This document shows positions 2,945 through 55,943 of a stretch of 55,943 bases of DNA, piece after piece. Position 1 is the stretch's first letter. The number at the start of each line of letters is the position of its first letter. The translations under genes and the position numbers were made by a program. The notes below the pieces were generated by a model. It did not search any database. It saw only the letters and a program-made list of their open reading frames with translations, and was not told the origin of the DNA. The stretch spans positions 1 through 55,943 of the forward strand of contig CAZHVM010000003.1 in NCBI GenBank assembly GCA_964536135.1, written 5' to 3'. Source of the stretch: an uncultured Candidatus Saccharibacteria bacterium (GTDB lineage: Bacteria > Patescibacteriota > Dojkabacteria > SC72).

Positions 2945-4264
2945 ATGAGTAAAGAAACAGTAGCAATTTGTGGTTTAGGTTATGTTGGGTATCCAGTAGC
3001 AATGTTGTTTGCAGATGCAGGATTTGATGTTATTGGAGTAGATATCCTGGAAGACAGAGTAAAGAGATTAAATGAAGGAGAAAATCCTATCAAAGGGCAA
3101 GAACCAGGTTTGGATGATTTAGTAGAAGAAGTCTTCAAAAAGGGAAATTTTAGAGCAACTGCAGATATGAAAGAGTACAATCTTGCAGATTATATAATTG
3201 TTGCTGTTCAAACTCCTGTTGCAGAAGAAAACAAAAAACCAACCTATGAGAATTTAAAAGGCGCTCTTAGAGGTATTGGAAAGAATATGAAGAAAGGTGT
3301 TACGGTTATTATAGAATCTACAATAGCACCAGGAACTATGGAACATGTTGTTAAACCAATCTTGGAGGAAGAATCGGGTCTAAAAGCTGGAGAAGATTTC
3401 TTGTTAGCAAATTGTCCTGAGAGATTGATGCCAGGACATCTTTTGGAAAATATCCGATATTACAATAGAGTTATTGGAGGTTGGACTCCTGAATCTGCAA
3501 AAAAGGTAAAAGAATTATATAAGAATGTTGTTAAAGGAGAATTGCAAGAGACAGATTGTATAACCGCAGAGATAGTTAAAGCTGGAGAGAATACCTACCG
3601 TGATGTGCAGATAGCTTTTGCAAATGAGATGGCATTACTGTGTGAAGCATATGGAGCAAATGTCTGGAAAGTTCGAGAATTTATCAATAATTGTAAAAAA
3701 GTTACTGAAACCAGGCCAGAGGCATTAAGACAGATGCATTTCCCAGGTGCAGGAGTTGGAGGACATTGTATCCCTAAAGATTCATGGTTACTTATCCATG
3801 AAGTAAGAGATATTGTAAATCCAAAGCTTATTCCTACAGCAAGGTATATCAATGATTTTATGCCATTACATATGTTTGATCTTTTGAAAGATGGATTAAA
3901 AGAGGCAGGAAAGAAGCTTCGTGAGGTCAATGTTTTAGTTCTTGGATATGCTTACGATGCTAATTCTGACGATGACAGAAATACCCCAACTGTTCCATTT
4001 ATTGAGAAATTAAAAGAAAATAAAGTGAGATTTGAAATCCAGGATCCATTTATTAAGGATTATAAAGGTGATGTAAAAGAAATGTTGAAGGGTAAAGATG
4101 CTATTGTTCTTATGACAGGTCATGGTGAGTATAAAGAATTAGAATATAAAGAAATTGCAAAACTCATGAACAAGAATCCATTAATAATTGATGGAAGAAA
4201 TATCTTTGATAAAGAAGATGCAAGGAAGAATGGATTTGTATATAAAGGAGTTGGAAATATATAA
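2945..4264 (+). CDS. UDP-N-acetyl-hexosamine 6-dehydrogenase (nucleotide-sugar dehydrogenase, WbpA/WecC-like)
   Basis: GxGxxG (ICGLGYVGYP), a catalytic Cys motif (GGHCIPKD), and a typical UDPG_MGDP_dh length of 439 aa. Confidence 0.85.
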   Translation: MSKETVAICGLGYVGYPVAMLFADAGFDVIGVDILEDRVKRLNEGENPIKGQEPGLDDLVEEVFKKGNFRATADMKEYNLADYIIVAVQTPVAEENKKPTYENLKGALRGIGKNMKKGVTVIIESTIAPGTMEHVVKPILEEESGLKAGEDFLLANCPERLMPGHLLENIRYYNRVIGGWTPESAKKVKELYKNVVKGELQETDCITAEIVKAGENTYRDVQIAFANEMALLCEAYGANVWKVREFINNCKKVTETRPEALRQMHFPGAGVGGHCIPKDSWLLIHEVRDIVNPKLIPTARYINDFMPLHMFDLLKDGLKEAGKKLREVNVLVLGYAYDANSDDDRNTPTVPFIEKLKENKVRFEIQDPFIKDYKGDVKEMLKGKDAIVLMTGHGEYKELEYKEIAKLMNKNPLIIDGRNIFDKEDARKNGFVYKGVGNI

Positions 4265-7434: not shown

Positions 7435-9297
7435 ATGAAATTAAATCTAAGTAAACAAGACAAATGGGCATTGATAATAATTCTTATTAATTTTGCCTTA
7501 CTATCTGTAATATCCTATTTTAGGTATGCAGTATTTGATGAGAAGATCTATCTTCATGAGACTATCATGATGAGTGAGATCTTAAAACAAGGTGAATGGA
7601 TTGGAAATTACGGAGTCGGTTTGCACGGTTTTCTATTCAAGCTACCAGTGGCCATTACTTTTATGATAACTGGTCCTTCTACATATGTAGCAACATTTTT
7701 TCATATTATCTTGGCTTCAGTAACATGTTGGATCTTCTATAGAATCTTGGCTTACAACTTGAATCTAAAAAAATGGTCAATCATTGGGCTTGTTTTGTTA
7801 ATCTCTAATTATAGTATGTTTAGTTGGTCATTAACTTTTCATCGAGAAGTACCTGTTCTGTTTGCTTTGATGTTATTTACCTACTTCATCATTAATCACA
7901 AAGAAAGGATATTCTTAAATGGTCTGTTACTTCTACTAATACTAGATGCAAAAGAGTATGTTTTTTTTATTGTTTTACCAGTTTTGTTAATTTATCTTTT
8001 TGTTTTAAATGATGGGGAAAAGAAATTAATTCAAAGAGTATTGTCTACAGTAAAATCATTACTGTTCTTACTGTTTCCATCCTTAGTATATCTTGTATTA
8101 ATGTTTACAACCTCGATTATACCGGTCAATATGTTTGATGCGTCTTTGCTTGGTCTAACAGAAGGACATTTCGGGTATCAAATAGCTCACACCTTACCTA
8201 GTAAAGCTCTAACAGATTTAAGTAGTTATTTAAATAACAATATTTTATACCGCGTAATAAGAAATGTTTCTACAGATATATGGGGAATTATTCAAGTTAT
8301 TCCTTTGTATGTTGCAAGTTATTTTGAAAAATTCCTATACATTTCAACATTCTCTTTCCAAGGGATATCTATATTTGTTTTAATACCATCCTTCATTTCA
8401 TCGTTGTATATCTTCAAGAAGTGGAGGAAAAGTAAAAAACAGTTGTTGTTCTTAGTGTTATTCTTTTGGGTGTTTATCATTGTTTATATGATTAGGTCGT
8501 CTCATCAGCGATATATATTACCTTTATTGCCTTTTTTAATAATCTTCTTAATAATTGGTTTAATAACAGTAACAAAAGAATGGTCAAAGTATCGAAAATT
8601 CTATTTATCAACAATTATAATCTCAGCTTTTGCTTTTTTAACGACAATCTTATATCAAGACTTAACTGATTTACGAGTGCTTTTTAATATTGCTTCAGGC
8701 TTTGTTATATTACTTTTGCTTGGAGGGCTATCTTATTTTAAGAGATATCGTAAAGTAATAATCAATCTAATAGTAATATTTATTATTGGTGCTTCTTTGT
8801 TTATCAATATTTATGCAATATCAACAAAAAATCAGATATATAAAAGTTTAACTTGGGGGATTAATGGAGAGGCTAACAGGATAGCGCAAATGCTTTCTCC
8901 TGAAGACGTTATATTTGTTGATTGTAAATCAGGGACTATATCAGAATTCACTTATCTTATAAATTTTTACAGGAAAAACAATCATCTACCAATAGAATGG
9001 CATTGGAAGTTGGATAAGAATTTAGTTAAAAGAAAGCTTGATGCAGTAGAAATTAGACCAAATTTTTATAATGAATTTGACGTAACAGATACGGTGGCCT
9101 TTAAATCATATATAATTGAAAATGATATAAACAAAATAGTCCTTCTGAAGTCTAAATTAGAAGATCAGAAATTTCCATTAGAGGATTATATTGAAGTATT
9201 TGAAAAAGAGAATTGGCTGAAATCAGAACAAACTCAGCAAATGAAAAATAAGACAGTATATATATTTGAGATAATAGATGAAAACATTAAAGAATAA
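7435..9297 (+). CDS. polytopic membrane protein, GT-C-like glycosyltransferase candidate (paralogue A of 16613-18517)
   Basis: 620 aa and multi-TM. It has an acidic first-loop motif (FDEKIYLHET), then WIGNYGVGLHGF, and a soluble C-terminal domain. It shows full-length similarity to the 634-aa ORF at 16613. Confidence 0.5.
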   Translation: MKLNLSKQDKWALIIILINFALLSVISYFRYAVFDEKIYLHETIMMSEILKQGEWIGNYGVGLHGFLFKLPVAITFMITGPSTYVATFFHIILASVTCWIFYRILAYNLNLKKWSIIGLVLLISNYSMFSWSLTFHREVPVLFALMLFTYFIINHKERIFLNGLLLLLILDAKEYVFFIVLPVLLIYLFVLNDGEKKLIQRVLSTVKSLLFLLFPSLVYLVLMFTTSIIPVNMFDASLLGLTEGHFGYQIAHTLPSKALTDLSSYLNNNILYRVIRNVSTDIWGIIQVIPLYVASYFEKFLYISTFSFQGISIFVLIPSFISSLYIFKKWRKSKKQLLFLVLFFWVFIIVYMIRSSHQRYILPLLPFLIIFLIIGLITVTKEWSKYRKFYLSTIIISAFAFLTTILYQDLTDLRVLFNIASGFVILLLLGGLSYFKRYRKVIINLIVIFIIGASLFINIYAISTKNQIYKSLTWGINGEANRIAQMLSPEDVIFVDCKSGTISEFTYLINFYRKNNHLPIEWHWKLDKNLVKRKLDAVEIRPNFYNEFDVTDTVAFKSYIIENDINKIVLLKSKLEDQKFPLEDYIEVFEKENWLKSEQTQQMKNKTVYIFEIIDENIKE

Positions 9298-10588
9298 AAA
9301 AATAGTTATAATTACTGGGTTACCTTTTCGAAAACAGGGGAACCAAAGCCTTTTAAGGTTTGTAAATATGTTTTTGGATCGTAAGATTAAGGTTACAATG
9401 TTCTCTGCAGGTTTTGATCCAAACGGAGAGAACGTTCTCTCTAACTCATTGTTTTCAGTTAAGAGAATCAAAAGTTTGGAGATAGCTTTAACAATATTTT
9501 TAAATCAACGGTTCTTTAAAGAAAAGATTTTGGATGAACATAAAAAAAACATATTTCAAGAGATAAAATCAGAGACAGTATTGCCACCTTATGGGGAATA
9601 CAACCTTTTTACATTATTGGGCAAATGGTCGAAATGGTTTTTGGTGATTTTGGATAATATTTTACTCTTCCTCTCTTTAAATATAAGATTCTCAGATATA
9701 ATCAAAAAAGCAGATATTATAATTGGATATGAAGACAACTTTACTCTTTGTGCAAAGTGGATTTCCTCTGTTTGGAGAAAAAAGTATATTAATAAATTTC
9801 AGGGAACGATTCTAAGGGCAACAAATCGAAACAAATCTTTAGCAATAAGGTATTTTCCGCATAACTATTTCAGTTTGAACAAATCTGATTTGTGTCTTAT
9901 GGTCAATGATGGAACAGATGGAGATTATTACGCTAAAGAAATAGGTTGTAAGGAAATCTTTTTCGAACCTCATGGGGTTCTTCGGTATGAACATAAGGGG
10001 GATGAATTTGAGACACTAAAAAAATTAAAGAAAACCGGAAAATTTATATTATTCAACAATGCGAGTGGAAGTACTTGGAAAAGGCCAGACAGAGCTATTA
10101 GAGCATTGCTTAAGATTAGAAAAGATATATTAAAAGATATTCTTTTGATAACTACCTATTATGGACCAAATCGGGCAGAGCTAATTGAATATACTAAAGC
10201 AAGTGGATTAGACAGGAATGTTCTCTTTGTTGAAAGGTTAGACAATATCCAGTGTAATTACATACTACAAAATTCTGATGTAGTAATTATGACAAATGAC
10301 ATTAGTAACCTGGGTAATCCTGTCTTGGAAGCTATCTTTTATAAAATTCCAATTATATCAATAAATGATGGAAGTTTAGATGGTTTTGTTACTGACAAGA
10401 AGGATTCTCTTCTTGTAGATCTTGATGTCGAGTTTGATGAAAATGTCGCCAATGCAATTGAAAAGCTGTATAAGGATAGAGAATATTATCAAAATTTGAA
10501 AAGAAATATGAATAAAAACAACCAAGTAAAAGAGCTGTCTGTGCAACAAGCAAGAGAGTTTAACCATATTCAGAATCTATTTGTATGA
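9278..10588 (+). CDS. divergent GT4/GT-B-fold glycosyltransferase
   Basis: The C-terminal half has the GT-B donor-binding pattern (SDVVIMTNDISNLGNPVLEAIFYKIPIISINDGSLDGFVTD). It overlaps its neighbours by 20 nt and 4 nt. Confidence 0.55.
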   Translation: MKTLKNKKIVIITGLPFRKQGNQSLLRFVNMFLDRKIKVTMFSAGFDPNGENVLSNSLFSVKRIKSLEIALTIFLNQRFFKEKILDEHKKNIFQEIKSETVLPPYGEYNLFTLLGKWSKWFLVILDNILLFLSLNIRFSDIIKKADIIIGYEDNFTLCAKWISSVWRKKYINKFQGTILRATNRNKSLAIRYFPHNYFSLNKSDLCLMVNDGTDGDYYAKEIGCKEIFFEPHGVLRYEHKGDEFETLKKLKKTGKFILFNNASGSTWKRPDRAIRALLKIRKDILKDILLITTYYGPNRAELIEYTKASGLDRNVLFVERLDNIQCNYILQNSDVVIMTNDISNLGNPVLEAIFYKIPIISINDGSLDGFVTDKKDSLLVDLDVEFDENVANAIEKLYKDREYYQNLKRNMNKNNQVKELSVQQAREFNHIQNLFV

Positions 10589-11901
10589 TAAATATCAAGG
10601 AATATATAAATGGGTTCTTTTCAAAAGGGACATTCAAAAAAAACATAGCAATTATGTTTTCAGGGACAGTAATATCTCAAGGTGTGTATCTACTTTTTTA
10701 TCCTATTTTGACAAGAATTTATCAGCCATCTGATTTCGGGCAGTATGCAATATTTATTGCTTTTTTATCAATTGGCTCTCTTATTGTTACTGGTCAGTAT
10801 GAATCAAGTATTTTATTGCCCAAAAAGGAAAAGAATGTTAAATATCTAATTTGGGGTGCAGTTTCATTGGCTTTGATTTTCTTTCTGATTGTTACGACAA
10901 TTTTGTTATTATCATCTCAATTCTTAGCAAGCAAAAATCTTTTTAATGGAAACTTAATTCTTATTATACTAGGAGTTTCTATATTCATTAATGCTTTGTA
11001 TCAGATTGGAACATATATGTCTCTAAGAAATAGGGGATTTAAAGCATTAACAATTATAAATATAATAAATGTTGGTTTTAGTATTTCATTTCAATACATT
11101 TTTTCTTTAACAGAGATTAAAAGCATAGGCTTGATTGTTGGATATATGATTGGAACACTTGTCGCGATGATTTGTCTGTTTATATACAATAGAAAAACAG
11201 TAAAACTGAATTTTAAAACACCAAATTTGCATTTAGGGATATTCAAAGTGTTAAAAAGATATAAAAACTTTCCCTTTGCTAATCTTCCAGCAATGCTTGT
11301 AAATCTTTTGGCAAATCAGATGCCTCAACTTTTGCTTAATACTTTTGGACAATCTATTGTAGGGTACTTTTCTATGTCTCAGAAAGTTCTTGGTAGTCCT
11401 GTAACACTTTTTTCTACATCGGTATCACATGTCTTCAAAGAAAGGGCTAGTAGTGATTACAGAAACAAGGGAAATTGTCGGCCAATTTTCGTTAAAACCT
11501 TTAAAAGTTTATTCTTAATATCTATTGTTCCATTTGTTTTAATCTTTATTTTTGCTCCAACAATTGTTCCAATAATTTTTGGAACAGAATGGGTAGAGGC
11601 TGGAGTATATATTAGAGCTTTGACTCTAATGTATTTTTTCAAATTCACAGTTAGTCCGTTGTCTTATGTTATAGTTATTGCCGAGAAACAAAAGCTTAAT
11701 TTATTACTCCAGACAACACTTTTAGTATTAACAGCGAGCTCTCTCTATTACGGGATATCTCAAAACAATCCTTTAACTGCTGTTATCCTTTTTTCTATCT
11801 CATACTCTGCGGTTTATATCCTTTTCTTGTTTATCTCTTATAAATTGTCAAAGAATCAGAGACATAACGCTAAGATGATATCAGAGTATAAAGAACAGTA
11901 A
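10585..11901 (+). CDS. Wzx-type oligosaccharide flippase (MOP superfamily), paralogue A
   Basis: 438 aa, about 12 hydrophobic helices, and a Polysacc_synt-like N-terminus (NIAIMFSGTVISQGVYLLFYPILTRIYQPSDFG). Confidence 0.75.
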   Translation: MINIKEYINGFFSKGTFKKNIAIMFSGTVISQGVYLLFYPILTRIYQPSDFGQYAIFIAFLSIGSLIVTGQYESSILLPKKEKNVKYLIWGAVSLALIFFLIVTTILLLSSQFLASKNLFNGNLILIILGVSIFINALYQIGTYMSLRNRGFKALTIINIINVGFSISFQYIFSLTEIKSIGLIVGYMIGTLVAMICLFIYNRKTVKLNFKTPNLHLGIFKVLKRYKNFPFANLPAMLVNLLANQMPQLLLNTFGQSIVGYFSMSQKVLGSPVTLFSTSVSHVFKERASSDYRNKGNCRPIFVKTFKSLFLISIVPFVLIFIFAPTIVPIIFGTEWVEAGVYIRALTLMYFFKFTVSPLSYVIVIAEKQKLNLLLQTTLLVLTASSLYYGISQNNPLTAVILFSISYSAVYILFLFISYKLSKNQRHNAKMISEYKEQ

Positions 11902-36910: not shown

Positions 36911-36983
36911 GGGCGTATAGCTCAATTGGTAGAGCAAGCGGCTCTTAACCGCTAGGTTCAGGGTTCGAGCCCCTGTACGCTCA
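36911..36983 (+). tRNA. tRNA-Lys (anticodon CTT)
   Basis: Cloverleaf folded by hand: acceptor GGGCGTA/TACGCTC, D arm GCTC-AATTGGTA-GAGC, anticodon arm AGCGG-CTCTTAA-CCGCT, variable loop AGGTT, T arm CAGGG-TTCGAGC-CCCTG, discriminator A. No CCA is encoded. Confidence 0.93.
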
Positions 36984-38454: not shown

Positions 38455-39291
38455 ATGCCTAATAAAATATCTTCGGAGATTGATTCGGATTCTCAACAAA
38501 ATCTAAACCAAGATGTTCGTGCGAATATACCTGTATCTGATGTAACCTCAACTCAATCACAAAAAGTAAAATTTAATCCTCTTCTTCCTGTTGTAATACT
38601 TCTCTTTATAATAATCTTGGGAGGTTCTTATTATGTGTATCAAAAGTTCATAAAGATAGAAGCAAAACAAGAAATGACAAATGAAGATTCTAATGCACAA
38701 GATACCACGGATGATTCTGAGGTAATAAAAAATGAGGAAGAAGATAAGGAGATTTCTTATGTAAAGAAGACTTTTACATTAACAACAAAGTCTACGGAAG
38801 TTGTGGCAGGAGAAACCATAAACAATGAAATGGAAATTCCTTCTAATTGGACTTATTCTACAGAAGTATTACCATCAGGGACAGTAATATCAGACTGTAG
38901 TAAACATATAATTACAAGTGATGATTCCAAAATGATCATATCTATAACTCCAAAATGCTCAAGTTGGAAGTCATCGATTATTTCTAAACCAAACAATAAT
39001 GTTATTGGAACGTATACTGCTCTTGGTAATGATGGTGTACATACAATTTCTGTTGTTAGAATTGGTATTGATTCTACTAATTATAGCTATATCCAAGGAT
39101 CATCGATTAGCGGATCTGAAGCTGAATATAACAATACTTTTTTGGTTGAAAAACATGGAAATTTAGCGAGTGATGGAGATCCAGTATTTTGGGCTGCTGA
39201 TATCAATACTAAATATATAGGAGAGTCAGTAAATGCAAAAACATATCTTGATATCTCAGATAAAATAGTGCTGTCATTGCAAATTAAATAG
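38455..39291 (+). CDS. hypothetical membrane-anchored protein
   Basis: A single TM helix (LLPVVILLFIIILGGSYYVY) after a polar N-terminus, then a Ser/Thr-rich ectodomain. No recognised motif. Confidence 0.5.
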   Translation: MPNKISSEIDSDSQQNLNQDVRANIPVSDVTSTQSQKVKFNPLLPVVILLFIIILGGSYYVYQKFIKIEAKQEMTNEDSNAQDTTDDSEVIKNEEEDKEISYVKKTFTLTTKSTEVVAGETINNEMEIPSNWTYSTEVLPSGTVISDCSKHIITSDDSKMIISITPKCSSWKSSIISKPNNNVIGTYTALGNDGVHTISVVRIGIDSTNYSYIQGSSISGSEAEYNNTFLVEKHGNLASDGDPVFWAADINTKYIGESVNAKTYLDISDKIVLSLQIK

Positions 39292-40915
39292 ATTTAATCA
39301 TATACAAAAGTACTTTTGTGTAACCTAGCTTTCTGTAGTACTCTCTAGTACCAATTGCAGAGATTACAGATATATTTTTAAATCTATTCTCTTTAGATAT
39401 CTCTTCTGCCTTCTCTATTAATTTTTTCCCAAGACCTAGATGCTGTGATTGTCCAGTACTATCTTCTGTTAAACTCATAACCTTACCATATACATGTACT
39501 TCACGAATGATAGAAGAGTACCTTAATTCTTTAATGTAATTAAATCTTTTGTAAATTAGATTTGGTAAACACAATCTAAGAAAGCCACATATTTTGTCTG
39601 TCTTCTTAGTTCTGAAAGATATGAACACTTCTTTACCAATTGAGGATTTGTAGTTAATTATTTCCATTTCCAAATCCTTCATTTTTATATTTGAATCCTG
39701 TATCTCTCTACTTCGTATCTCTTGCAATTTAAGCCCTCTCTCATCAATCTCTTTTTCTGCAATCTGTCTTAAATTAGTCTTTTTATTTCCTGCAACAATC
39801 TCTTCCGAAGGAATATCTCGGATAATTCTAGAAAGCCTACAATATCTTGGAGTCGTAGGCATAACAGAGACCAAAACTTCGAGTAATTCTTCCTCTGTGT
39901 ATGGTTTGTACATTTTTTTCTTATAGAGGTTGTTCAGATATGTGTTTGGAACAATGGAGGTAGGATATATTTTTAATTCATCAGGAGAGAAGCCTTTTCT
40001 CCAAAGTTTTTTGTAATCTGCAATATCTGAGTTAACAGTTGCTTTGTAAAGGCTTGGCATCCAATGCCCATGTATTTTAAACCCTCCAAGTCTTAATAAT
40101 TTTATTGCTTTTCTAACATCTTTTACTTTTCTTCCAATATTGTTTGCTTGTAATATTCTATTGCTCAAGGATTGGATACCGATTTGTATTTTTGTAGCTC
40201 CTAGTTTTCTCAAATGTATTACCTCTTCTTTGGTTATTAAGTCTGGCCTTGTCTCAAGAACTAATCCTACATTTCTACAGTATGCAGTCTCGTTTACTAG
40301 ATGTTCTTTCTCTAGATTAAAGAAAGATGCCTCGGATTCGTAATCTTTTTTAGGTTGTATGTACTCTGTATTATTGGGAGAAATATCGTTAAGGGCTTTG
40401 TAACACTGTGTAACAAACCAAAGTTGGTACTCTTTGGGATATGCACTCCAACTTCCTCCAAGAACAAGAAGTTCTACCTTTTCAATATTATGCCCAATAT
40501 TCTTAAGTGCAATTAGTCTATTGTAAACTTGAGCGTATGGGTCAAAATGATTTGTAAGAGCTCTTTGTGCACCTGGCTCTGAAGATATGTAGCTCTTGGG
40601 CATATTTGGATCATTGGGACAGAATATACATCTACCAGGGCAAGGAAATGGTTTGGTTAGTACAGTTACTGTAGCAACTCCAGAGTTTGTCCTTGTTGGT
40701 TTTAATCTAATTCTCTCTTCAATTGTTTTGTTTTGCAAATCTAATTCTTTGAGTGCATATACCAATTCATCATGACGAAACATTTTCTTCCCATCCTTGA
40801 GATATTTCCTAAGTATCTTGTTTAGAGAATCTTTCTTCCAGATTTCCTCCTCTCTTATCTTTTTGAAAATTTCTTTTAGTTCCGTTTTGTATTTTTCTGG
40901 TTTAAAGTATTCCAT
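39284..40915 (-). CDS. Elp3-family radical-SAM/GNAT protein (tRNA U34 carboxymethylation-type enzyme homologue)
   Basis: A radical SAM CxxxCxxC (PFPCPGRCIFCPN), Elp3-like spacing, and a C-terminal GNAT motif A (QHLGLGKKLIEKAEEI). At 543 aa the length matches Elp3. Confidence 0.85.
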   Translation of the reverse strand: MEYFKPEKYKTELKEIFKKIREEEIWKKDSLNKILRKYLKDGKKMFRHDELVYALKELDLQNKTIEERIRLKPTRTNSGVATVTVLTKPFPCPGRCIFCPNDPNMPKSYISSEPGAQRALTNHFDPYAQVYNRLIALKNIGHNIEKVELLVLGGSWSAYPKEYQLWFVTQCYKALNDISPNNTEYIQPKKDYESEASFFNLEKEHLVNETAYCRNVGLVLETRPDLITKEEVIHLRKLGATKIQIGIQSLSNRILQANNIGRKVKDVRKAIKLLRLGGFKIHGHWMPSLYKATVNSDIADYKKLWRKGFSPDELKIYPTSIVPNTYLNNLYKKKMYKPYTEEELLEVLVSVMPTTPRYCRLSRIIRDIPSEEIVAGNKKTNLRQIAEKEIDERGLKLQEIRSREIQDSNIKMKDLEMEIINYKSSIGKEVFISFRTKKTDKICGFLRLCLPNLIYKRFNYIKELRYSSIIREVHVYGKVMSLTEDSTGQSQHLGLGKKLIEKAEEISKENRFKNISVISAIGTREYYRKLGYTKVLLYMIKSI

Positions 40916-47284: not shown

Positions 47285-50200
47285 ATGAAAAAATTCGGAG
47301 TTTTGTTATCTATTCTTCCCTTTGTCTTTCTATTTTTTTCGTCCATTTTTCTTTCTCATCCTAATGTCTCCTATGCACAAACAGAACCAACTATGGTGAA
47401 GGATATTAATAGCTTTGGGGAAGGGAGCAGTATAGGGGAATCAATTGTAATGGGGAATTATATCTACTTCCGTGCAAGTGATGGTGTTCACGGTGTTGAG
47501 TTGTGGAAGAGTAACGGAACAGATTCTGGAACAGTTATGGTGAAAGATATAAATGTTGGGAGTGGGAGTAGTGCAGATAATGTATACAGGGATATGATTG
47601 TGATGGGAGATAGTATATATTTCAAAGCCACGGATGGAATACATGGTTACGAGCTTTGGAAGAGCGATGGTACAGAAGTGGGAACTGTTATGGTTAAAGA
47701 CATTAGTAGTGTAGCGACACCAGGAAATCCAAGTCTATTTACTATCATGGATAACACTTTATATTTCTATGCCTACAGTGGTACTTATGGTTATGAGTTA
47801 TGGAAAAGTAACGGTACAGAAGCAGGTACTGTTTTGGTAAAGGATATTTACAGTGGAACATCAAATGCTAGTATAAGTTCTTTGGCCGTAGTTGGAGATA
47901 TGTTGTATTTTAATGCTTCGAGCACAGGTTATGGCTCCGAGCTATGGGAGAGTGATGGAACAGCAGATGGCACTGTCATGGTGAAAGATATACGAAGTGG
48001 AACTGGTAGTAGTACTCCTAAATACTTGACTTCTTTTGGGGGATATCTTTATTTTTCTGCAACAAATGGTACGAGTGGTATTGAGCTTTGGAAGAGCGAT
48101 GGCACTGATGTTGGAACTGTTATAGTGAAAGATATCTATAGTGGGAGTGGATCTAGTTCACCACTATATTTGAAAAATGTAGATGGTGTATTGTATTTCA
48201 TTGCGACTAACGGAACTGAAGGTGTTGAGTTGTGGAGGAGTGATGGAACATCGGATGGTACTGTCATGGTGAAGGATATACGAAGTGGAACTGGTAGTAG
48301 TACTCCTCAATACTTTACTTCTTTTGGTGAATATCTTTATTTTTCTGCAACAGATGGTGTAAATGGAATTGAAGTTTGGAGAAGCGATGGTACAGCATTA
48401 GGAACAACCATGGTCAAGGATATTCAGGAGGGTACTACTAGCAGTAGCCCAAGTAATTTTTTTGTAATTGGGAGTACCTTATATTTTGCTACATATGAGG
48501 ATGTTCATGGTAAGGAACTTTGGAAAAGTGATGGTACAGAATCTGGGACTGTTTTGGTAGAAGATATTTATGAAGGAGAATATGATAGCTCACTTGCGAA
48601 TTTTGTTTCTCTTAATGGTACTTTGTATATGAAAGCTGATGACAAGATTCATGGAGACGAACTTTGGAAGAGTGATGGCACAAGTACTGGAACGACAATG
48701 GTTAAAAATATAAATACTGGAACTACTGACAGCTATCCAATACTTTTAACTGTTGCTGGAAGTACCCTGTATTTTGTTGCTGATGATTGGTTATATGGTT
48801 CTGAGCTATGGAAAACTGATGGAACTGAGACCGGTACCTCTATGGTTAAAGATATTTATTCAGGTAGTTATAGTAATGATATTGATGTAATGTATGCAAT
48901 AGGAGATTCTATATACTTTACTGCAGAGGACGGTATCCATGGCATTGAGCTATGGAAAAGTGATGGTACAGAATCTGGTACATTTATGCTGAAGGATATT
49001 TATGCGGAGGATTATTATGATAGTAGTCCCGAGAATCTTACATCTGTGGGTAATATTTTGTTCTTCTCTGCAGATACTGCTGAATATGGAACTGAACTTT
49101 GGAAGAGTAATGGAACAGAAGCTGGAACTGTGATGATTAAAGATATTTATAGTGGTACCTTAAATAGCAACCCGAGTTATATTACTACTGTTGGAGATAT
49201 TGTTTATTTCAGTGCAAGTACTAGTTCATACGGTGATGAGCTTTGGAAGAGTGATGGTACAGAATCTGGTACGGTTATGGTTAAAGATATCTATAGTGGT
49301 ACGAGCAGTAGTAATTCTAATTATCTTACTAAAGTAGGAGATCTTGTATATTTTAGTGCGAGAAACTCTACTAATGGTTATGAGCTTTGGAAGAGTGATG
49401 GTACAGAAACGGGTACTGTAATGGTTAAAGATATTTATACTGGTACAAGTAGTAGTGCCCCATGGCAGTTGGTTGATGTAGGTGGAGCCTTATATTTCCA
49501 TGCGAATGATGGAGTGAATGGGACTGAGCTTTGGAAGAGTGATGGTACTGAAGCAGGTACAGTAATGGTGAAAGATATTTATACTGGAAGTACATCGAGT
49601 ACACCCATGTATCCTGTTGCTATTGGGAATACGTTGTATTTTACTGCTGACGATGAAACTTCTGGAAATGAACTTTGGAAAAGTGATGGTACAGAGGAAG
49701 GTACAGTATTAGTTAAAGATATCAAATCTGGAGTAGATGGTAGTCTTCCTAAAAACTTGATGGCGATAGGGGAGACCTTGTATTTTTCTGCTAATGATGG
49801 AGTGCATGGATACGAGCTTTGGAAGAGTGATGGTACAGGAGATGGGACTGTTATGGTAAAGGATCTATATGTTGGAATTAGTGAGGGCGATCCTATGTAT
49901 CTTGTTTCTTTTAATGATACACTCTATTTCTCAGGTAGTTCAATTAATGGTAACGAGCTTTGGGTTCTTGGTGCTTCTACACAGTCTGAGGAAACACCAA
50001 CCGAAGATCCTATTGTTGAAGAATCTAGTGATGATGAAGATGCAACAGAAGAAGAAAACGCAATAGTGGAAACATATACTGTGAGTCAATCTACAATGCC
50101 AGATACTCCAACAGAAACATCAGATGAATCTGTAGAGAAATTATATGAAGATGAAGAGAAGAATGATGTAATCGAAATCGCGGGGAAGGAATTAGCTGAA

Positions 50201-50317
50201 GAAGAGGGTGGAATTGCATGGATATTTATAGGCACCTCCTGTGTTTTATTACTACTTTTCTTTGTAATTATCTATATCCGAAAGAGGAAATCGCGAGAGT
50301 CTATAGAGAGATCTTAA
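47285..50317 (+). CDS. large secreted ELWxxDGT-repeat protein with an acidic stalk and a C-terminal TM anchor
   Basis: A signal peptide (LLSILPFVFLFFSSIFLSHPNVSYA), 17 full copies of ..G.ELW(K/R)(S/T)(D/N)GT..GT.MVKDI.. plus one degenerate copy, then a D/E/T-rich segment and IAWIFIGTSCVLLLLFFVIIYIRKRKSRE. Confidence 0.85.
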   Translation: MKKFGVLLSILPFVFLFFSSIFLSHPNVSYAQTEPTMVKDINSFGEGSSIGESIVMGNYIYFRASDGVHGVELWKSNGTDSGTVMVKDINVGSGSSADNVYRDMIVMGDSIYFKATDGIHGYELWKSDGTEVGTVMVKDISSVATPGNPSLFTIMDNTLYFYAYSGTYGYELWKSNGTEAGTVLVKDIYSGTSNASISSLAVVGDMLYFNASSTGYGSELWESDGTADGTVMVKDIRSGTGSSTPKYLTSFGGYLYFSATNGTSGIELWKSDGTDVGTVIVKDIYSGSGSSSPLYLKNVDGVLYFIATNGTEGVELWRSDGTSDGTVMVKDIRSGTGSSTPQYFTSFGEYLYFSATDGVNGIEVWRSDGTALGTTMVKDIQEGTTSSSPSNFFVIGSTLYFATYEDVHGKELWKSDGTESGTVLVEDIYEGEYDSSLANFVSLNGTLYMKADDKIHGDELWKSDGTSTGTTMVKNINTGTTDSYPILLTVAGSTLYFVADDWLYGSELWKTDGTETGTSMVKDIYSGSYSNDIDVMYAIGDSIYFTAEDGIHGIELWKSDGTESGTFMLKDIYAEDYYDSSPENLTSVGNILFFSADTAEYGTELWKSNGTEAGTVMIKDIYSGTLNSNPSYITTVGDIVYFSASTSSYGDELWKSDGTESGTVMVKDIYSGTSSSNSNYLTKVGDLVYFSARNSTNGYELWKSDGTETGTVMVKDIYTGTSSSAPWQLVDVGGALYFHANDGVNGTELWKSDGTEAGTVMVKDIYTGSTSSTPMYPVAIGNTLYFTADDETSGNELWKSDGTEEGTVLVKDIKSGVDGSLPKNLMAIGETLYFSANDGVHGYELWKSDGTGDGTVMVKDLYVGISEGDPMYLVSFNDTLYFSGSSINGNELWVLGASTQSEETPTEDPIVEESSDDEDATEEENAIVETYTVSQSTMPDTPTETSDESVEKLYEDEEKNDVIEIAGKELAEEEGGIAWIFIGTSCVLLLLFFVIIYIRKRKSRESIERS
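47381..49977 (+). repeat. in-frame tandem repeat array (about 48-51 codons per unit, ~18 units) encoding the ELWxxDGT repeats
   Basis: The recurring DNA core GAGCTTTGGAAGAGTGATGGTACAGAA and its variants recur with spacings of 144-153 nt (for example GAG at 47498, 47651, 47795). Confidence 0.9.
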
Positions 50318-51075: not shown

Positions 51076-52380
51076 ATGAAAAAAGGTAATGAAGAAAAGA
51101 TTCAGTTTAGAGATGAGTTCTCAAGTGGTGTAGAGACTTTCAAAGATGTAAAAAAGGAGCAAGAATCTCTTAACGCTAGCTTGCTGATAAAAGCAGGATT
51201 CATAAATCCAGAATTGGCTGGAGTATATACATATACCAGATTGGGATACGAGGTTTTGAAAAATATCGAGGATTTGACTAGGAAACATATGAGCAAGTGG
51301 GGTGGAGAAATTCTTATGCCTTCTCTTCAACCAGTCGAAAATTGGGAAGTTACAGGTAGGTTAGGTAATATGTCTTCGCTGTTTGAAACAAGAGGTGCGA
51401 ATGAAGTTTCAAGAAAGCTAAATTCATCTAGATATATTCTTGGGCCAACTCATGAAGAGATAGTTACTCCGTTGGCAAAGAGATATATCAAAAGTTATAG
51501 AGACTTACCTTTGGCTTTGTATCAGATACAGACGAAGTTTAGGAATGAGGCAAGACCTAAATCGGGTTTGTTAAGAAGTAGGGAATTTAGAATGAAAGAT
51601 CTTTATTCCTTTCATGAAAGTGAGGAAGACTTGTTAGAATTCTATGAAGGAATAAAGAAGGAATATATGCTACTGTTTGACGATTTGGGATTAGGGGAAG
51701 ATACTTTTGTTACTTTGGCAGATGGAGGAGATTTCACAAAAGAGTTCTCTCACGAATTTCAAACATTAATACCACAGGGAGAGGACACGATATATCTAGA
51801 TAGGGGAAATAAGATCGCATATAATAAAGAAATAGTAAACAAAGAGAACGAAGAAAGATTGGGAGTTAATTTTGATAACTTAGAGCAGGTATCTGCTTCA
51901 GAAGTTGGAAATATATTTCCCCTTAATTTGAAATTCTCTGATCCATTTAGTTTGACATATACAACAAAGGAAGGAATAGTAAAACCAGTATATATGGGTT
52001 GTTATGGTTTAGGAACTTCACGTTTGATGGGTGTAATAGCAGAGAAGTTTGCAGACGAGAAGGGTTTGGTCTGGCCAGAGAGAGTTGCCCCTGCTAAGTA
52101 TCATCTTGTAACTATTGGCGAGGAGGAGAAGGTCTCCGAGTTATCTAAGGAGCTTTTTGAAGTAATAGGGGAAGATGCTTTGTGGGATAGAAGAACCAAG
52201 GTCAGTGTAGGAGAGAAGTTAAAGGATGCAGATTTAATAGGTTGTCCATACAGGGTAATTATTTCCTCAACTAGTATTGAAAAGGGAGGGGTAGAGATTA
52301 AGGGTAGAACGTCAGAGAAGGAAGAGTATCTCTCTATAGAGGAACTACTTAACAAGTATGGAGGAGTAAGGGAGAGTTAG
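51076..52380 (+). CDS. proS: prolyl-tRNA synthetase, bacterial-type core without the INS editing domain
   Basis: Class II motifs: LYQIQTKFRNEARPKSGLLRSREFRMKDLYSFH (motif 2) and GCYGLGTSRLMGV (motif 3), plus a C-terminal anticodon-binding domain. It is 434 aa, and only about 80 residues separate the post-motif-2 region from motif 3. Confidence 0.92.
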   Translation: MKKGNEEKIQFRDEFSSGVETFKDVKKEQESLNASLLIKAGFINPELAGVYTYTRLGYEVLKNIEDLTRKHMSKWGGEILMPSLQPVENWEVTGRLGNMSSLFETRGANEVSRKLNSSRYILGPTHEEIVTPLAKRYIKSYRDLPLALYQIQTKFRNEARPKSGLLRSREFRMKDLYSFHESEEDLLEFYEGIKKEYMLLFDDLGLGEDTFVTLADGGDFTKEFSHEFQTLIPQGEDTIYLDRGNKIAYNKEIVNKENEERLGVNFDNLEQVSASEVGNIFPLNLKFSDPFSLTYTTKEGIVKPVYMGCYGLGTSRLMGVIAEKFADEKGLVWPERVAPAKYHLVTIGEEEKVSELSKELFEVIGEDALWDRRTKVSVGEKLKDADLIGCPYRVIISSTSIEKGGVEIKGRTSEKEEYLSIEELLNKYGGVRES

Positions 52381-52919
52381 AGAATCAACTTAACATTTCT
52401 TTCTTTAGAGAGTTTCTTAATATAATCTGCAAGAGGTTCTAATCCAATATCTTTTCTTCTTTTGTTTACTAGTTCGGGATCTTTCAAATCTTTAAGTTTG
52501 AATGTATTCTCACTGTTTTCTACTGAAACAAACTGTGTCCCATATATCTGAGTTTTGTTTTGCCAAGTTTCTACTCTGTCACATAGCATAGCAAAATTAA
52601 GTGGTTCAATATCTTCTAAATTCTTTTTCATTAGATATAGATATTTCTTCATAAAAGATATCTCACTTCTTGGCATATGTTGAACAAGAAGAAAGGCTGC
52701 GAGTTGTGCATCTTTACCATATTCGGAAGTAATTAGTCCTGTTGTTTTAAATATCTTTTTAAATTCTTCTCTGTTTATCCTGTCTATTCTTTGCATTTCC
52801 TCAAGATCCTTTTTATCTTTTGTTTGTTCATACTTTCCTCTAATCTCTTGATCGAGTTTAGACATCTGTATGAGTTTTTGTGATACTGATTGTTTGTTTA
52901 GCATAACGAATTTTAGCAT
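52377..52919 (-). CDS. hypothetical protein (possibly DUF6624-like)
   Basis: QRIDRINREEFKKIF...DAQLAAFLLVQHMP resembles a family I recall as DUF6624. Not verifiable here. Confidence 0.4.
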   Translation of the reverse strand: MLKFVMLNKQSVSQKLIQMSKLDQEIRGKYEQTKDKKDLEEMQRIDRINREEFKKIFKTTGLITSEYGKDAQLAAFLLVQHMPRSEISFMKKYLYLMKKNLEDIEPLNFAMLCDRVETWQNKTQIYGTQFVSVENSENTFKLKDLKDPELVNKRRKDIGLEPLADYIKKLSKERNVKLIL

Positions 52920-53062: not shown

Positions 53063-53593
53063 ATGGAGGAATTAATATTAGAATTTCCAACTTATGCAAG
53101 GGAAAAAGATGCGAAAGCATATATTGACGAATTAACGAGCTCTAATTCTAAATTTAATGGTTGCGATGATTTAGAAAAATTTGAAGATTATCGAGAATGG
53201 GTTGATAGGGTTGTCGATTGGAACAAAGGCGTAAACTTACCAGAGGATTATGCACAAGCTATCACTTATTTTGTGGTTAGAGCTAAAGATAATAAACTTA
53301 TAGGTATGGTAAACATTAGATATGGAGTAACAGAAGAAAATGTCAAAAGAGGTGTGGGACATATTGGTAGTGGAGTTAGACCTACTGAAAGAGGAAAGGG
53401 ATATGGAACCGAGATTCTAAAAATATGTTTAGAAGAGTGCAAAAAATACAATTTACCAGAAATTCATTTGAATGTTAATAATGAGAATATCGGTGCAATA
53501 AGAACTATAGAAAAAAATAAAGGGAGATTAAATAAAAAGATTGTAATGGACAATGGGGAGATCTTGCTTAATTATATAATAGAGAATAATTAA
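53063..53593 (+). CDS. GNAT-family N-acetyltransferase
   Basis: Acetyl-CoA binding motif A (VRPTERGKGYGTEILKICLEECKK). Confidence 0.8.
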   Translation: MEELILEFPTYAREKDAKAYIDELTSSNSKFNGCDDLEKFEDYREWVDRVVDWNKGVNLPEDYAQAITYFVVRAKDNKLIGMVNIRYGVTEENVKRGVGHIGSGVRPTERGKGYGTEILKICLEECKKYNLPEIHLNVNNENIGAIRTIEKNKGRLNKKIVMDNGEILLNYIIENN

Positions 53594-53720
53594 GACTTTC
53601 GGACCCCAATAATCCTATCTTTGTAGACTTTTGTGATTTTTAGACATACCAACTATAAGAGTTGAATGAATAACGCTTTTATTGTACAATGAGCTTCAAT
53701 AAGTTGTTATATCAAGTCTT

Positions 53721-54692
53721 ATTAAAAATAAACATAAAACAATAGGTATTATAACAACGTCGAGCCCAATTGATGGATTATCTGAAGAACAAATAGAAAA
53801 AGCGTATTCCTATCTTCGAAATAAGGGTTGGGTTATTAAAGAGGCTCCTATTTGTCGGAAAAGGGAGGGGTATCTTTCTGTTAGAAATATAGAGGAAAGA
53901 GTTAAATGTCTGCATGATTTTGTTATTGATAAAGATATTGATGTCATTATGTCCTTTTGGGGTGGTACGAATACTAATCAATTATTACCGTATCTTGATT
54001 ATGAGTTAATAAAGAAGAACCCTAAAATATATGTTGGTTATTCAGATACCTCCGCATTACTGTTAGCTATTACTAAGAAGACAAATCTTATTACATACCA
54101 TGGTCCAGCAGCAATCACATATTCTAAACCTGATTTAATGGAATATTGTTATGGATATTTCGAGAAAGCCATAAAGGGAGGCGAGTGGAGTATAGAAGAA
54201 CCAAAAAAGTATGCAGATGATTTGTATTTTCTTCGAGAAGAAGATGCAAATAGAAGAATATTTAAAAAAAATGAAGGGTTAAAGGTTTTCAGAAGTGGAG
54301 ATTGTGACGGGGAAGTTGTGGCTTCCAACTTGCAAACGCTTTTGGTATTAGCAGGAACAGAATATTTCCCTTCTTTAAAAAACAAGGTCTTGTTTGTTGA
54401 GGAAGCAGAGGATGAACAAACACCGATGATACATAGGTTCTTTACCCAATTGTCTTTGCTTAAGGATTTTAAGGATATTAAAGGTTTGGTTGTTGGTAAA
54501 TTTATGGATTATTCTAGAGTTTCTCAAGATAACTTGGAGACTATTTTTAAGGAGGTTTCAACAAGATTTAAAGGACCATTAATTTATGATGCTTCTTTTG
54601 GGCATACAGATCCAATTTTTACGATTCCTAACGGTGCTAGAGTTAAAATAAAGTCAAATTCTGGGGAGAAGATTAAATTCTACTATGATTGA
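53721..54692 (+). CDS. S66-family peptidase (LD-carboxypeptidase LdcA / MccF-like); 5' end lacks a canonical start
   Basis: Catalytic Ser (VGYSDTSAL), Glu (FVEEAEDE) and His (FGHTDPIF) are present. The conserved N-terminal part (TIGIITTSSPIDGLSEEQIEKAYSYLRNKGW...) is in frame upstream of the track ATG at 53949. No ATG, GTG or TTG occurs between the TAA at 53700 and 53949. ATT at 53721 is a possible start. Confidence 0.75.
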   Translation: MKNKHKTIGIITTSSPIDGLSEEQIEKAYSYLRNKGWVIKEAPICRKREGYLSVRNIEERVKCLHDFVIDKDIDVIMSFWGGTNTNQLLPYLDYELIKKNPKIYVGYSDTSALLLAITKKTNLITYHGPAAITYSKPDLMEYCYGYFEKAIKGGEWSIEEPKKYADDLYFLREEDANRRIFKKNEGLKVFRSGDCDGEVVASNLQTLLVLAGTEYFPSLKNKVLFVEEAEDEQTPMIHRFFTQLSLLKDFKDIKGLVVGKFMDYSRVSQDNLETIFKEVSTRFKGPLIYDASFGHTDPIFTIPNGARVKIKSNSGEKIKFYYD

Positions 54693-55830
54693 GCATTTAA
54701 AGGATGAATGTTGTGAAGACATCTCAACTAAAATTACAGATTTTTATAACTCTAAAGGGTTAGACTATCATGAGCCATTAGGGTTAATCCCAGGTGAAGA
54801 TGATAAAAGTGTCACCTTTACGTCTGCGACTATTAATAATTTCAAAGGATATTTAAGAGGGGAGGAAGAAATACCAGTTAATGGTGTATATACTATTCAG
54901 AATTGTCTTAGAACGCGGAATCTAGATTATAGGTATGAGCTTGAAAAAACTCCTAGATTTGGCAGTTATTTTAGAATGTTTGGACTTATAAGAAGGCCAG
55001 ACTTTTTATTAGAAACATATGCGGATACTATTGAATTTATTGAATCAGAATTAAAAGTTCCTTCAGAATCAATAGTGGTTCATAAATCTAGTGAACATAA
55101 GGTGTTCAACGAATTAATGAAAAAAAATTCGAAACAACATTGGCTTGAAGATAAAATTGATTGGTATAATTGGGAATATGGGGAGGAAGGCATTCGAGGA
55201 GAGGGTATTAGTATTGAAATACCTAATAAGTCAAATCCAACAGAAACACAAGTGATTGGAAATATTGTTGTTATATATAACAGTGATAAACCTATTGCTG
55301 TTGAGTTTGGCTTTGGTCTAGAAACAACAATGAGTCGATTGGAGGGTCTCCCACACCCAATATTTTCTTCTATTATAGGAGAGATATATCTTAAAAGAAA
55401 TAATAATTATGCTGATGAAAAAGATATCCTTTTCTTAGACTTTGCCAATATTCTTTATCATTTAGAAAAAAATAATGTAAAGCGAAGTACAAACATATAT
55501 GTTGATAGAACTATCAAACAATTATTTCAGGGATTATCTATGCAAATGCTTTTGACTTTAAGAGAAGTGTCAGATCTTAAGCCTTTGTTATCGGATTCTC
55601 AAGGTAGTTTATTTGAAGAGTTTGTAGGTTATAATTATTCGTTTCAAGGTAGGGCTTCCTTGTTTCTGAACTCTTGTAAACAAATAGTATCCAACTATAC
55701 AGGTGTTAGGGGTGAGGAGAAAATTAACAGAACGATTGAAAAAAGTGCTCGAAAATATGGATTTAACAAAGAACAGAAGGAAACTTTATTTAACTTTATG
55801 AACTCTCTTAATGGAAAATCTCTCAGTTAG
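54685..55830 (+). CDS. stand-alone paralogue of the alanyl-tRNA synthetase aminoacylation domain (divergent)
   Basis: By-eye alignment to the AlaRS N-terminus: DFYNSKGLDYHEPLGLIPGEDDKSVTFTSATINNFKGY against DFFHSKGHQVV.SSSLVP.NDPTLLFTNAGMNQFKDV; TIQNCLRTRN against TSQRCVRAGGKHND; RFGSYFRMFG against RHHTFFEMLGNF; VEFGFGLETT against VDTGMGLERI. There is no editing or C-Ala domain. Confidence 0.6.
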   Translation: MIEHLKDECCEDISTKITDFYNSKGLDYHEPLGLIPGEDDKSVTFTSATINNFKGYLRGEEEIPVNGVYTIQNCLRTRNLDYRYELEKTPRFGSYFRMFGLIRRPDFLLETYADTIEFIESELKVPSESIVVHKSSEHKVFNELMKKNSKQHWLEDKIDWYNWEYGEEGIRGEGISIEIPNKSNPTETQVIGNIVVIYNSDKPIAVEFGFGLETTMSRLEGLPHPIFSSIIGEIYLKRNNNYADEKDILFLDFANILYHLEKNNVKRSTNIYVDRTIKQLFQGLSMQMLLTLREVSDLKPLLSDSQGSLFEEFVGYNYSFQGRASLFLNSCKQIVSNYTGVRGEEKINRTIEKSARKYGFNKEQKETLFNFMNSLNGKSLS

Positions 55831-55943
55831 GGATATAAAAGACTTATCATATACCTCTTTTTTAGGACTTATCAACCAGTGGAATGTTCCACCAGGAGCT
55901 TATGAAACAGTTAACAAATGGGTTGAGTTTTCGAATATGAATG
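55811..55943 (+). CDS. 5' end of a CDS (partial), probably a class I SAM-dependent methyltransferase
   Basis: MENLSVRDIKDLSYTSFLGLINQWNVPPGAYETVNKWVEF resembles the N-terminal (Y/F)T.F.GL.N..N.PPGG segment of many Methyltransf_11-type enzymes. It overlaps the previous gene by 20 nt and runs off the window. Confidence 0.4.
   Translation, partial: MENLSVRDIKDLSYTSFLGLINQWNVPPGAYETVNKWVEFSNMN

Follow-up and report, generated by a model that had tools for sequence, protein, structure and literature searches.

The stretch analyzed here (hereafter, the window) comprises 55,943 nucleotides (nt) of contig CAZHVM010000003.1, from an uncultured bacterium of the Dojkabacteria, and it ends within a group of four genes on the forward strand. 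The first encodes a GNAT N-acetyltransferase of 176 amino acids (aa) (positions 53063 to 53593; PF00583, E = 1.2e-12; PF13302, E = 6.6e-11). It is followed by the gene for an S66 serine peptidase (53703 to 54692, an open frame of 329 codons that matches both Pfam S66 domains), by a gene for a stand-alone 381-aa protein that resembles alanyl-tRNA synthetase (AlaRS) in both profile (PF01411) and fold (54685 to 55830), and by the first 44 codons of a S-adenosylmethionine (SAM)-dependent transferase gene (55811 to 55943), which is cut by the window end and whose family is known from an orthologue. Direct reading of the sequence gives an 8-nt overlap between the S66 and AlaRS-like genes (ATGATTGA at 54685 to 54692) and a 20-nt overlap between the AlaRS-like and transferase genes (ATG at 55811, TAG at 55828 to 55830), and relatives of this operon repeat both overlaps. 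An earlier note made from the letters of the window alone had placed the GNAT gene, the S66 gene, the 381-aa open reading frame (ORF), the start of the methyltransferase gene, and both overlaps at these positions, and our ORF reading bears this out. The four ORFs are real genes.

These genes form the 5' end of a conserved operon whose order is (GNAT)-S66-AlaRS-like-MccD-like-D1-D2, in which D1 and D2 are two proteins of the DCD (dCTP deaminase) fold. The genes for D1 and D2 lie beyond the window end and are known from the loci of relatives. In one of these (locus L001, Dojkabacteria, 81% identity), the order is GNAT, S66, AlaRS-like, a complete transferase of 272 aa, and DCD proteins of 171 and 173 aa. 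The earlier note had described a trio of S66, AlaRS-like, and methyltransferase genes; these genes are indeed linked in other loci, but the unit does not end with them and continues with the two DCD-family genes.

In all of the ~25 distinct loci that we examined, an MccD-like gene lies next to or near the AlaRS-like gene. The S66 gene is present in ~21 of these, and D1 and D2 are both found in ~15 complete cases. The block S66-AlaRS-like-MTase-DCD-DCD (MTase, methyltransferase) recurs at 37 to 51% identity between unrelated flanking genes, and also at greater distance in locus L013, where it lies among genes for ribosomal proteins, release factor 1 (RF-1), and aminoacyl-tRNA synthetases (aaRSs). 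In locus L015 (Saccharimonadales), the block has a DUF1826 gene (3407 to 4237) between the S66 and AlaRS-like genes, and in locus L017 it is rearranged and joined by an ornithine/diaminopimelate (Orn/DAP) decarboxylase gene. A scan of genome collections yielded three Dojkabacteria loci only; a scan of metagenomes yielded 12 further loci. By local hidden Markov models, the MTase gene adjoins the AlaRS-like gene in 12/12 of these, with D1, D2, and S66 present in most of those with long enough contigs and with three gene orders represented; S66 was not found within the 14.5 kb of locus L028. The genes stay linked from locus to locus, in permuted orders and each time with different flanks.

Members of the operon

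The AlaRS-like protein is weakly matched in Pfam by PF01411, over residues 16 to 148 only (E = 1.4e-9), with no tRNA_SAD or DHHA1 domain detected in its 381 aa, and it matches PDB entry 1riq with an E value of 2.7e-7. Its AlphaFold model (pLDDT 80.8) has catalytic fragments of AlaRS as its top Foldseek matches; the match to the E. coli AlaRS fragment 3hxu (E = 1.5e-13, TMq 0.66) covers nearly the whole length and takes in the helical domain, of the tRNA-recognition type, that follows the catalytic core. The resemblance to AlaRS proposed by the earlier note is thus borne out by both profile and predicted structure. Its statement that the match holds motif by motif goes too far, since past about residue 180 the match is seen by profile or fold only.

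In an alignment with residues 1 to 441 of E. coli AlaRS, the protein keeps the equivalents of Arg69, Trp170, Asn212, Val214, Gly237, and Gly239, and it also retains a base-stacking Phe. It has Glu207 in place of Asp235 and Thr214 in place of the motif-3 Arg, and it lacks the GGKHNDLENVG loop. The whole family shares these changes, and the motif-3 Arg is found in no member of the families aligned. The alignment is unreliable toward the C terminus, and the residues that it places opposite Asn303 and Asp400, which recognize G3:U70, were set aside. The alignment agrees with the earlier note on the missing GGKHNDLENVG segment and the Thr in motif 3, and the Pfam result agrees with it on the absence of an editing domain and of a C-Ala domain. 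The note's opinion that this is unlikely to be the housekeeping AlaRS is also upheld by the score against the alaS equivalog model TIGR00344, which is 39.2 bits compared with a cut-off of 457, and by the loss of the motif-3 Arg and the Glu at the Asp235 position. Judged by these residues, the AlaRS-like protein lacks what is needed for amino-acid activation.

A word-indexed protein search returned 14 homologues with 37 to 97% identity. Those that are named come from Candidatus Dojkabacteria (WS6), a lineage of the Candidate Phyla Radiation (CPR), and some carry the NCBI label "alanine--tRNA ligase-related protein." An exhaustive profile search of the AlaRS-like family gave 1001 representatives at E ≤ 1e-3, of which 391 reach E ≤ 1e-10. 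The best 150 of these representatives are 115 to 549 aa long, and because none of the 150 exceeds 549 aa, we take the relatives to be stand-alone proteins rather than full-length AlaRS. A second word-indexed search with a 41-sequence profile gave 22 matches, mostly already known. Searching plasmids by tblastn with the AlaRS-like protein brought up Streptomyces alaS only; a relative from Exiguobacterium surfaced through the search with the MTase. No relatives were found in viral contigs.

The S66 protein matches both of its Pfam domains strongly (E = 3.5e-32 and 6.6e-26) and shares 32% identity with E. coli MccF (E = 4e-47). When structures in the PDB are ranked against it, the top 15 are all MccF or MccF-like, at 146 to 174 bits, while LD-carboxypeptidase (LdcA-type) structures score 44 to 84. 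The S66 proteins of the module behave in the same way, with 140 to 185 bits against MccF and 69 to 97 against E. coli LdcA, and the score of the window protein against NF008424 (muramoyltetrapeptide carboxypeptidase) is 90.4 bits compared with a cut-off of 378. The Ser, Glu, and His motifs read GYSDTS, FVEEAE, and FGHTDP. An insert of ~35 aa that is found in MccF and absent from LdcA is present, with a conserved ADDLYFLR motif; the position of MccF Trp186, which stacks on the nucleobase, appears to be occupied by Phe or Tyr, in a part of the insert where the alignment is uncertain. The earlier note had called this protein MccF/LdcA-like. Based on the PDB scores, motifs, and insert, we retain the first half of that description and assign the protein to the MccF type, not the LdcA type. 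The same scores disfavor the cell-wall remodeling module that the note had listed among its hypotheses, in which this enzyme would be a true LD-carboxypeptidase.

The start of the S66 gene is unusual. The frame is open from 53703, and the model of the N-terminal domain begins at residue 14 of this open frame. There is no in-frame ATG, GTG, or TTG before 53949, and use of this first canonical start would remove the N-terminal domain. At 53689 there is a conserved ATG in another frame; the ORF that starts there has 18 codons, and its TAG stop lies within the S66 frame. Because L001, which is 81% identical, has the same arrangement, the missing canonical start is not a sequencing error; locus L006 (75% identical) has a normal ATG. 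A non-canonical start is likely, possibly an ATT or ATA codon, and a frameshift is another possible explanation.

For the transferase, whose identity the earlier note had given as a methyltransferase, the window supplies 44 aa, and that call is confirmed only through the L001 orthologue. What the note missed is the specific likeness to MccD. The alignment of the 272-aa L001 protein with E. coli MccD spans 260 aa (26% identity, E = 7e-25) and takes in the N-terminal segment that is encoded in the window, and the sole PDB match of the L001 protein is 5fcd, which is MccD (E = 1.7e-21). A profile built from the MTases of the module scores genuine MccD at 134 to 139 bits. Matches of any kind to the MTase occur in 48 of 72,556 plasmids; of those near full length that were listed or inspected, all are mccD genes of mcc operons except for one Exiguobacterium gene. 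These alignments and scores place the MTase of the module in the MccD family. MccD moves a 3-amino-3-carboxypropyl group from SAM to the phosphate of microcin C (McC), after which the N-terminal domain of MccE decarboxylates it (PMC8323819).

D1 and D2 are DCD-fold proteins of ~170 aa with a conserved GRSS.GR motif. D1 keeps the deaminase Glu (in the motif TLE) and has Gln or a similar residue in place of the dUTPase-type Asp, while D2 keeps the Asp (in LIDIG) and has Met in place of the Glu. This complementary loss is seen in 8/8 loci aligned. D1 scores 81.6 against TIGR02274, below the cut-off of 92.8, and D2 scores 96.0, above it. Both proteins are always embedded in the module. They share the DCD fold and the GRSS.GR motif with the bifunctional dCTP deaminase-dUTPases of M. 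tuberculosis (2qxx) and M. jannaschii (1ogh), but differ from them in that the two catalytic residues are split between tandem paralogues, the Glu in D1 and the Asp in D2. The pair would thus be a natural example of a bifunctional dCTP deaminase-dUTPase divided into two complementary paralogues.

The GNAT gene is an accessory outside the conserved core. Among relatives, its position ahead of S66 is confined to L001/L005, L024, and L025, which encode AlaRS-like proteins 76 to 82% identical to that of the window, and the GNAT protein has no specific similarity to the C-terminal domain of MccE. The earlier note had placed it before the trio, an arrangement that holds only for some close relatives. 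GNAT proteins do recur in distant clusters, and the gene is possibly an immunity gene.

Distant relatives and known systems

One distant cluster is on a plasmid of Exiguobacterium sp. Helios (locus L021, NZ_CP053558.1, 70678 to 84407), where a gene for an AlaRS-related protein (hhalign probability of 99.6 against the family profile) lies beside an MccD-like gene. The cluster also contains genes for an AsnA-like enzyme, two ATP-grasp ligases, a glycosyltransferase, CDP-sugar enzymes, a deoxynucleoside kinase, and a separate 595-aa AlaRS, and it is apparently undescribed. Other distant loci combine MTase, AlaRS-like, family GT4 glycosyltransferase, and S66 genes with one for an AsnA-like core, and AsnA-like genes co-occur with the AlaRS-like gene in non-CPR clusters.

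Several of these loci contain gene fusions. In L037, an AsnA-like gene and two PF13302 GNAT genes accompany two fusions (8001 to 11442), one of an AlaRS-like protein with an HD phosphohydrolase and one, of 601 aa, of the MccD-like and S66 proteins. The AlaRS-like-HD fusion is 549 aa long and is represented by proteins P0160 and P0173. L039 encodes a 520-aa fusion of GNAT and AlaRS-like proteins (P0111; 549 to 2111) together with AsnA-like, S66, ATP-grasp, MTase, and decarboxylase genes, beside conjugation genes.

The module also has extra aaRS genes as neighbors. In L017, whose Orn/DAP decarboxylase is 26% identical to the N-terminal domain of MccE (E = 5e-14), the module is flanked by a tandem pair of AspRS genes of the non-discriminating type (438 and 435 aa, each scoring above the curated cut-offs) and by an N-terminally short LysRS gene (8420 to 11250 on the reverse strand and 1015 to 2295 on the forward strand). 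LeuRS flanks the module in L028 and SerRS in L029. Natural-product clusters with resistance genes of the target type would be expected to show such variability, such fusions, and such additional aaRS genes. Radical-SAM-like genes follow the module in L028 and L031.

The closest parallel for the AlaRS-like protein is AcmF of the ascamycin pathway of Streptomyces sp. 80H647, a truncated AlaRS that has lost its activation residues, depends on a Glu at the position of Asp235, and uses Ala-tRNA(Ala) as the donor to alanylate dealanylascamycin on its sulfamoyl nitrogen (PMC12945691). Going by that description, both proteins consist of the aminoacylation and tRNA-recognition domains only, and both have lost the residues that activate alanine with ATP. 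Both have Glu for the Asp that binds the amino group of alanine, and both retain an aromatic residue for base stacking as well as the equivalent of Arg69. Each cluster also holds a hydrolase that would be able to undo the alanylation, AcmE in the ascamycin cluster and S66 here. They differ at the position of Asn212, whose equivalent is kept here and is Gln in AcmF, and in their partners, which here are MccD-like, MccF-like, and DCD proteins and there are sulfamoyl-adenosine biosynthesis genes. The host here is a CPR bacterium, whereas that of AcmF is an actinomycete.

The microcin C operon (PMC8323819) likewise has an MccD-family MTase and an MccF-type S66 peptidase, and some loci related to the window operon add a pyridoxal phosphate-dependent decarboxylase like the N-terminal domain of MccE and PF13302 GNATs. 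L017 has its duplicated AspRS, and AspRS is the target of McC. In place of MccA, MccB, and the exporter MccC, however, the operon has the AlaRS-like protein and two DCD paralogues, or in other bacteria AsnA-like proteins. No MccA gene, ThiF-like MccB (judged by Pfam annotation for ThiF), or MccC exporter was found at any related locus in a comparison with genuine mcc operons. Because it has no MccA, MccB, or exporter, the operon is not an mcc operon.

Other proteins that use an aaRS catalytic core in a non-translational role include AsnA, EpmA/PoxA, HisZ, and the amino acid:carrier-protein ligases. These are of class IIb, HisRS type, or SerRS type and have defined functions, whereas the core here is of the AlaRS type and has other partners. 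The earlier note knew of no described system with this gene combination, and our literature search for combinations of MccD, MccF, AlaRS-like proteins, dCTP deaminase, and CPR found none either; coverage of the literature was incomplete, and this is absence of evidence only. Among aminoacyl-nucleotide antibiotic clusters, the host range and the split DCD pair are unusual.

Proposed function and alternatives

Based on family membership and conserved residues, from which every step of the following mechanism is drawn, we propose that the product of the operon is a small aminoacyl-nucleotide antimetabolite akin to microcin C or ascamycin, made without MccA or MccB, and that the operon also confers self-immunity. 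This is a reading in which we place about as much belief as doubt. D1 and D2, working one after the other or together in a mixed trimer, would convert dCTP to a scaffold at the level of a deoxyuridine-type monophosphate. The AlaRS-like protein would not activate alanine with ATP; with its alanine pocket and base-stacking Phe kept, it may instead move an alanyl group onto the nucleotide, the donor probably being Ala-tRNA(Ala), as in AcmF. The MccD-like protein would then alkylate the phosphate with SAM, adding either 3-amino-3-carboxypropyl, as in McC, or methyl. The S66 peptidase would cleave the amide bond of the aminoacyl-nucleotide, for self-immunity or turnover, and the GNAT, where present, could provide a second means of immunity by acetylating the free alpha-amino group.

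Of the hypotheses of the earlier note, the one that fits best is that of a small module for the biosynthesis of a modified aminoacyl compound. Its suggestion of an immunity module suits S66 and GNAT as parts of a larger whole, but not the AlaRS-like protein in the role of ligand sensor, since by analogy that protein is better read as an AcmF-like alanyl transferase.

A more specific version of the mechanism can be sketched, which we offer as speculation and consider unlikely as a whole. A DCD heterotrimer would deaminate dCTP, and the released ammonia, rather than water, would attack the alpha-phosphate to give a deoxyuridine 5'-phosphoramidate. The AlaRS-like protein would N-acylate this with alanine from Ala-tRNA, and the MccD-like protein would decorate the phosphate. 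The resulting non-hydrolysable alanyl-nucleotide would block an aaRS and be used by episymbionts against hosts or competitors, with S66 as the antidote, which would make the system a peptide-free counterpart of microcin C.

If the proposed function is correct, these operons would constitute a new and widespread class of aminoacyl-nucleotide clusters, in which enzymes derived from aaRSs stand in for the peptide and the ThiF machinery that microcin C employs. The recently found chemistry of AcmF would then reach far past one Streptomyces pathway, as would phosphate decoration of the MccD type past its own. Ultra-small CPR genomes would be seen to retain a dedicated toxin-and-antidote pathway, which bears on the interaction of episymbionts with their hosts, and the clusters would be a source of new candidate aaRS inhibitors and resistance enzymes.

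Several observations weigh against the antimetabolite proposal. Neither an exporter nor an uptake-mimicking moiety is conserved in the CPR-type operon, and the operon is widespread in minimal CPR genomes, sometimes among housekeeping genes (L013), so that a physiological role also fits. D1 and D2 could simply be the dcd and dut of the cell, and aaRS genes could adjoin the module by chance in small, gene-dense genomes. The likeness to AcmF, which is one to a published residue pattern, is imperfect at the Asn212 position. Finally, the AlaRS-like-HD fusion is without the helical C-terminal domain, and therefore dependence on tRNA may not be general.

The physiological alternative would be a housekeeping operon of CPR bacteria, in which D1 and D2 act as dCTP deaminase and dUTPase to supply dTTP, S66 is a murein LD-carboxypeptidase, and the AlaRS-like protein uses Ala-tRNA on a cell-wall precursor or another target. 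Retention of the operon across several CPR lineages and the setting of L013 are consistent with this, as are the split of residues between D1 and D2, which suits a deaminase and a dUTPase, and the score of D2 above the NCBIfam dCTP-deaminase cut-off. However, the S66 protein is clearly nearer to MccF than to LdcA and falls far short of the LdcA-model cut-off, the MTase is MccD-like, and the non-CPR relatives lie on a plasmid or beside conjugation genes with accessory genes of the natural-product type; in addition, the flanks of the operon vary from locus to locus. We consider a housekeeping role unlikely.

A function in detoxification or immunity alone would mean that aminoacyl-nucleotide toxins from outside, such as McC-like compounds or aminoacyl-sulfamoyl-adenosines, are destroyed by S66 or acetylated by GNAT, with the AlaRS-like protein as a decoy or binder and the remaining genes as bystanders. 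The MccF-type S66 and the membership of the GNAT in PF13302 agree with such a function, and stand-alone MccF homologues that give McC resistance are known (PMC8323819). What it leaves unexplained is the obligatory linkage, in permuted orders, with an MccD-like transferase and two DCD paralogues, the MTase-S66 and AlaRS-like-HD fusions, and the added decarboxylase, AsnA-like, ATP-grasp, and glycosyltransferase genes; moreover, MccD and the N-terminal domain of MccE are biosynthetic enzymes. Detoxification alone is, in our estimation, also unlikely.

dCTP deaminases are known defense effectors, and the operon might be imagined as an anti-phage or abortive infection system, in which the DCD pair depletes dCTP, an aminoacyl-nucleotide blocks translation, and S66 acts as a check. 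L003 adjoins a type I restriction-modification system, GmrSD, and DUF4411/M78 genes, and L017 adjoins McrB and SocA/Panacea genes. Most loci, however, are outside defense islands, there is no sensor or regulator gene, viral contigs gave no relatives, and PADLOC returned no match for GNAT, S66, AlaRS-like, D1, or D2 and a single match, to the mad2 model, for the MTase. A defensive function therefore appears very unlikely. As for the possibility that the protein is a housekeeping AlaRS, in split or minimal form, and is still able to charge tRNA(Ala), the AlaRS fold with its tRNA-recognition-type helical domain, the retained residues of the alanine pocket, and the absence of a full-length alaS from the 56-kb window (its 972-aa ORF is SecA) speak for it, but the family-wide loss of the motif-3 Arg, the Glu at the Asp235 position, the missing motif-2 loop, the failure against the alaS model, the absence of any gene for the C-terminal half of AlaRS next to the AlaRS-like gene at every locus examined, and the Exiguobacterium plasmid cluster, which has a family member and a separate alanine--tRNA ligase gene, make it hardly credible.

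Other features of the window

The G+C content of the window is ~33%. An alternative genetic code was considered and ruled out; because the S66 gene stops at TGA, the standard bacterial code applies. A weak promoter-like site (TTGAAT-17-TACAAT, 53662 to 53690, forward strand) in the spacer between the GNAT and S66 genes has its sequence kept in L001 and overlaps the out-of-frame ATG at 53689. Promoter and terminator scans of the window gave counts at chance level, with promoter-like sites no commoner than in shuffled sequence. There is no tRNA-Ala gene near the operon, and the sole tRNA gene of the window is a tRNA-Lys gene at 36911.

Three genes upstream of S66 is a gene for a ProRS of the short type (434 aa, 51076 to 52380, forward strand) that scores above the TIGR00409 cut-off. 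Its 3' end overlaps a convergent DUF6624 gene (52377 to 52919, reverse strand) by 4 nt. Farther upstream, a 1010-aa protein (47285 to 50317, forward strand) with no Pfam match has a signal peptide, ~28 tandem repeats of the form ELWKSDGT...GT.MVKDI, an acidic linker, and a C-terminal membrane anchor. A 543-aa protein encoded on the reverse strand (39284 to 40915) combines Radical_SAM and Radical_SAM_C domains with a weak C-terminal GNAT match, an Elp3-like architecture that is uncommon in bacteria.

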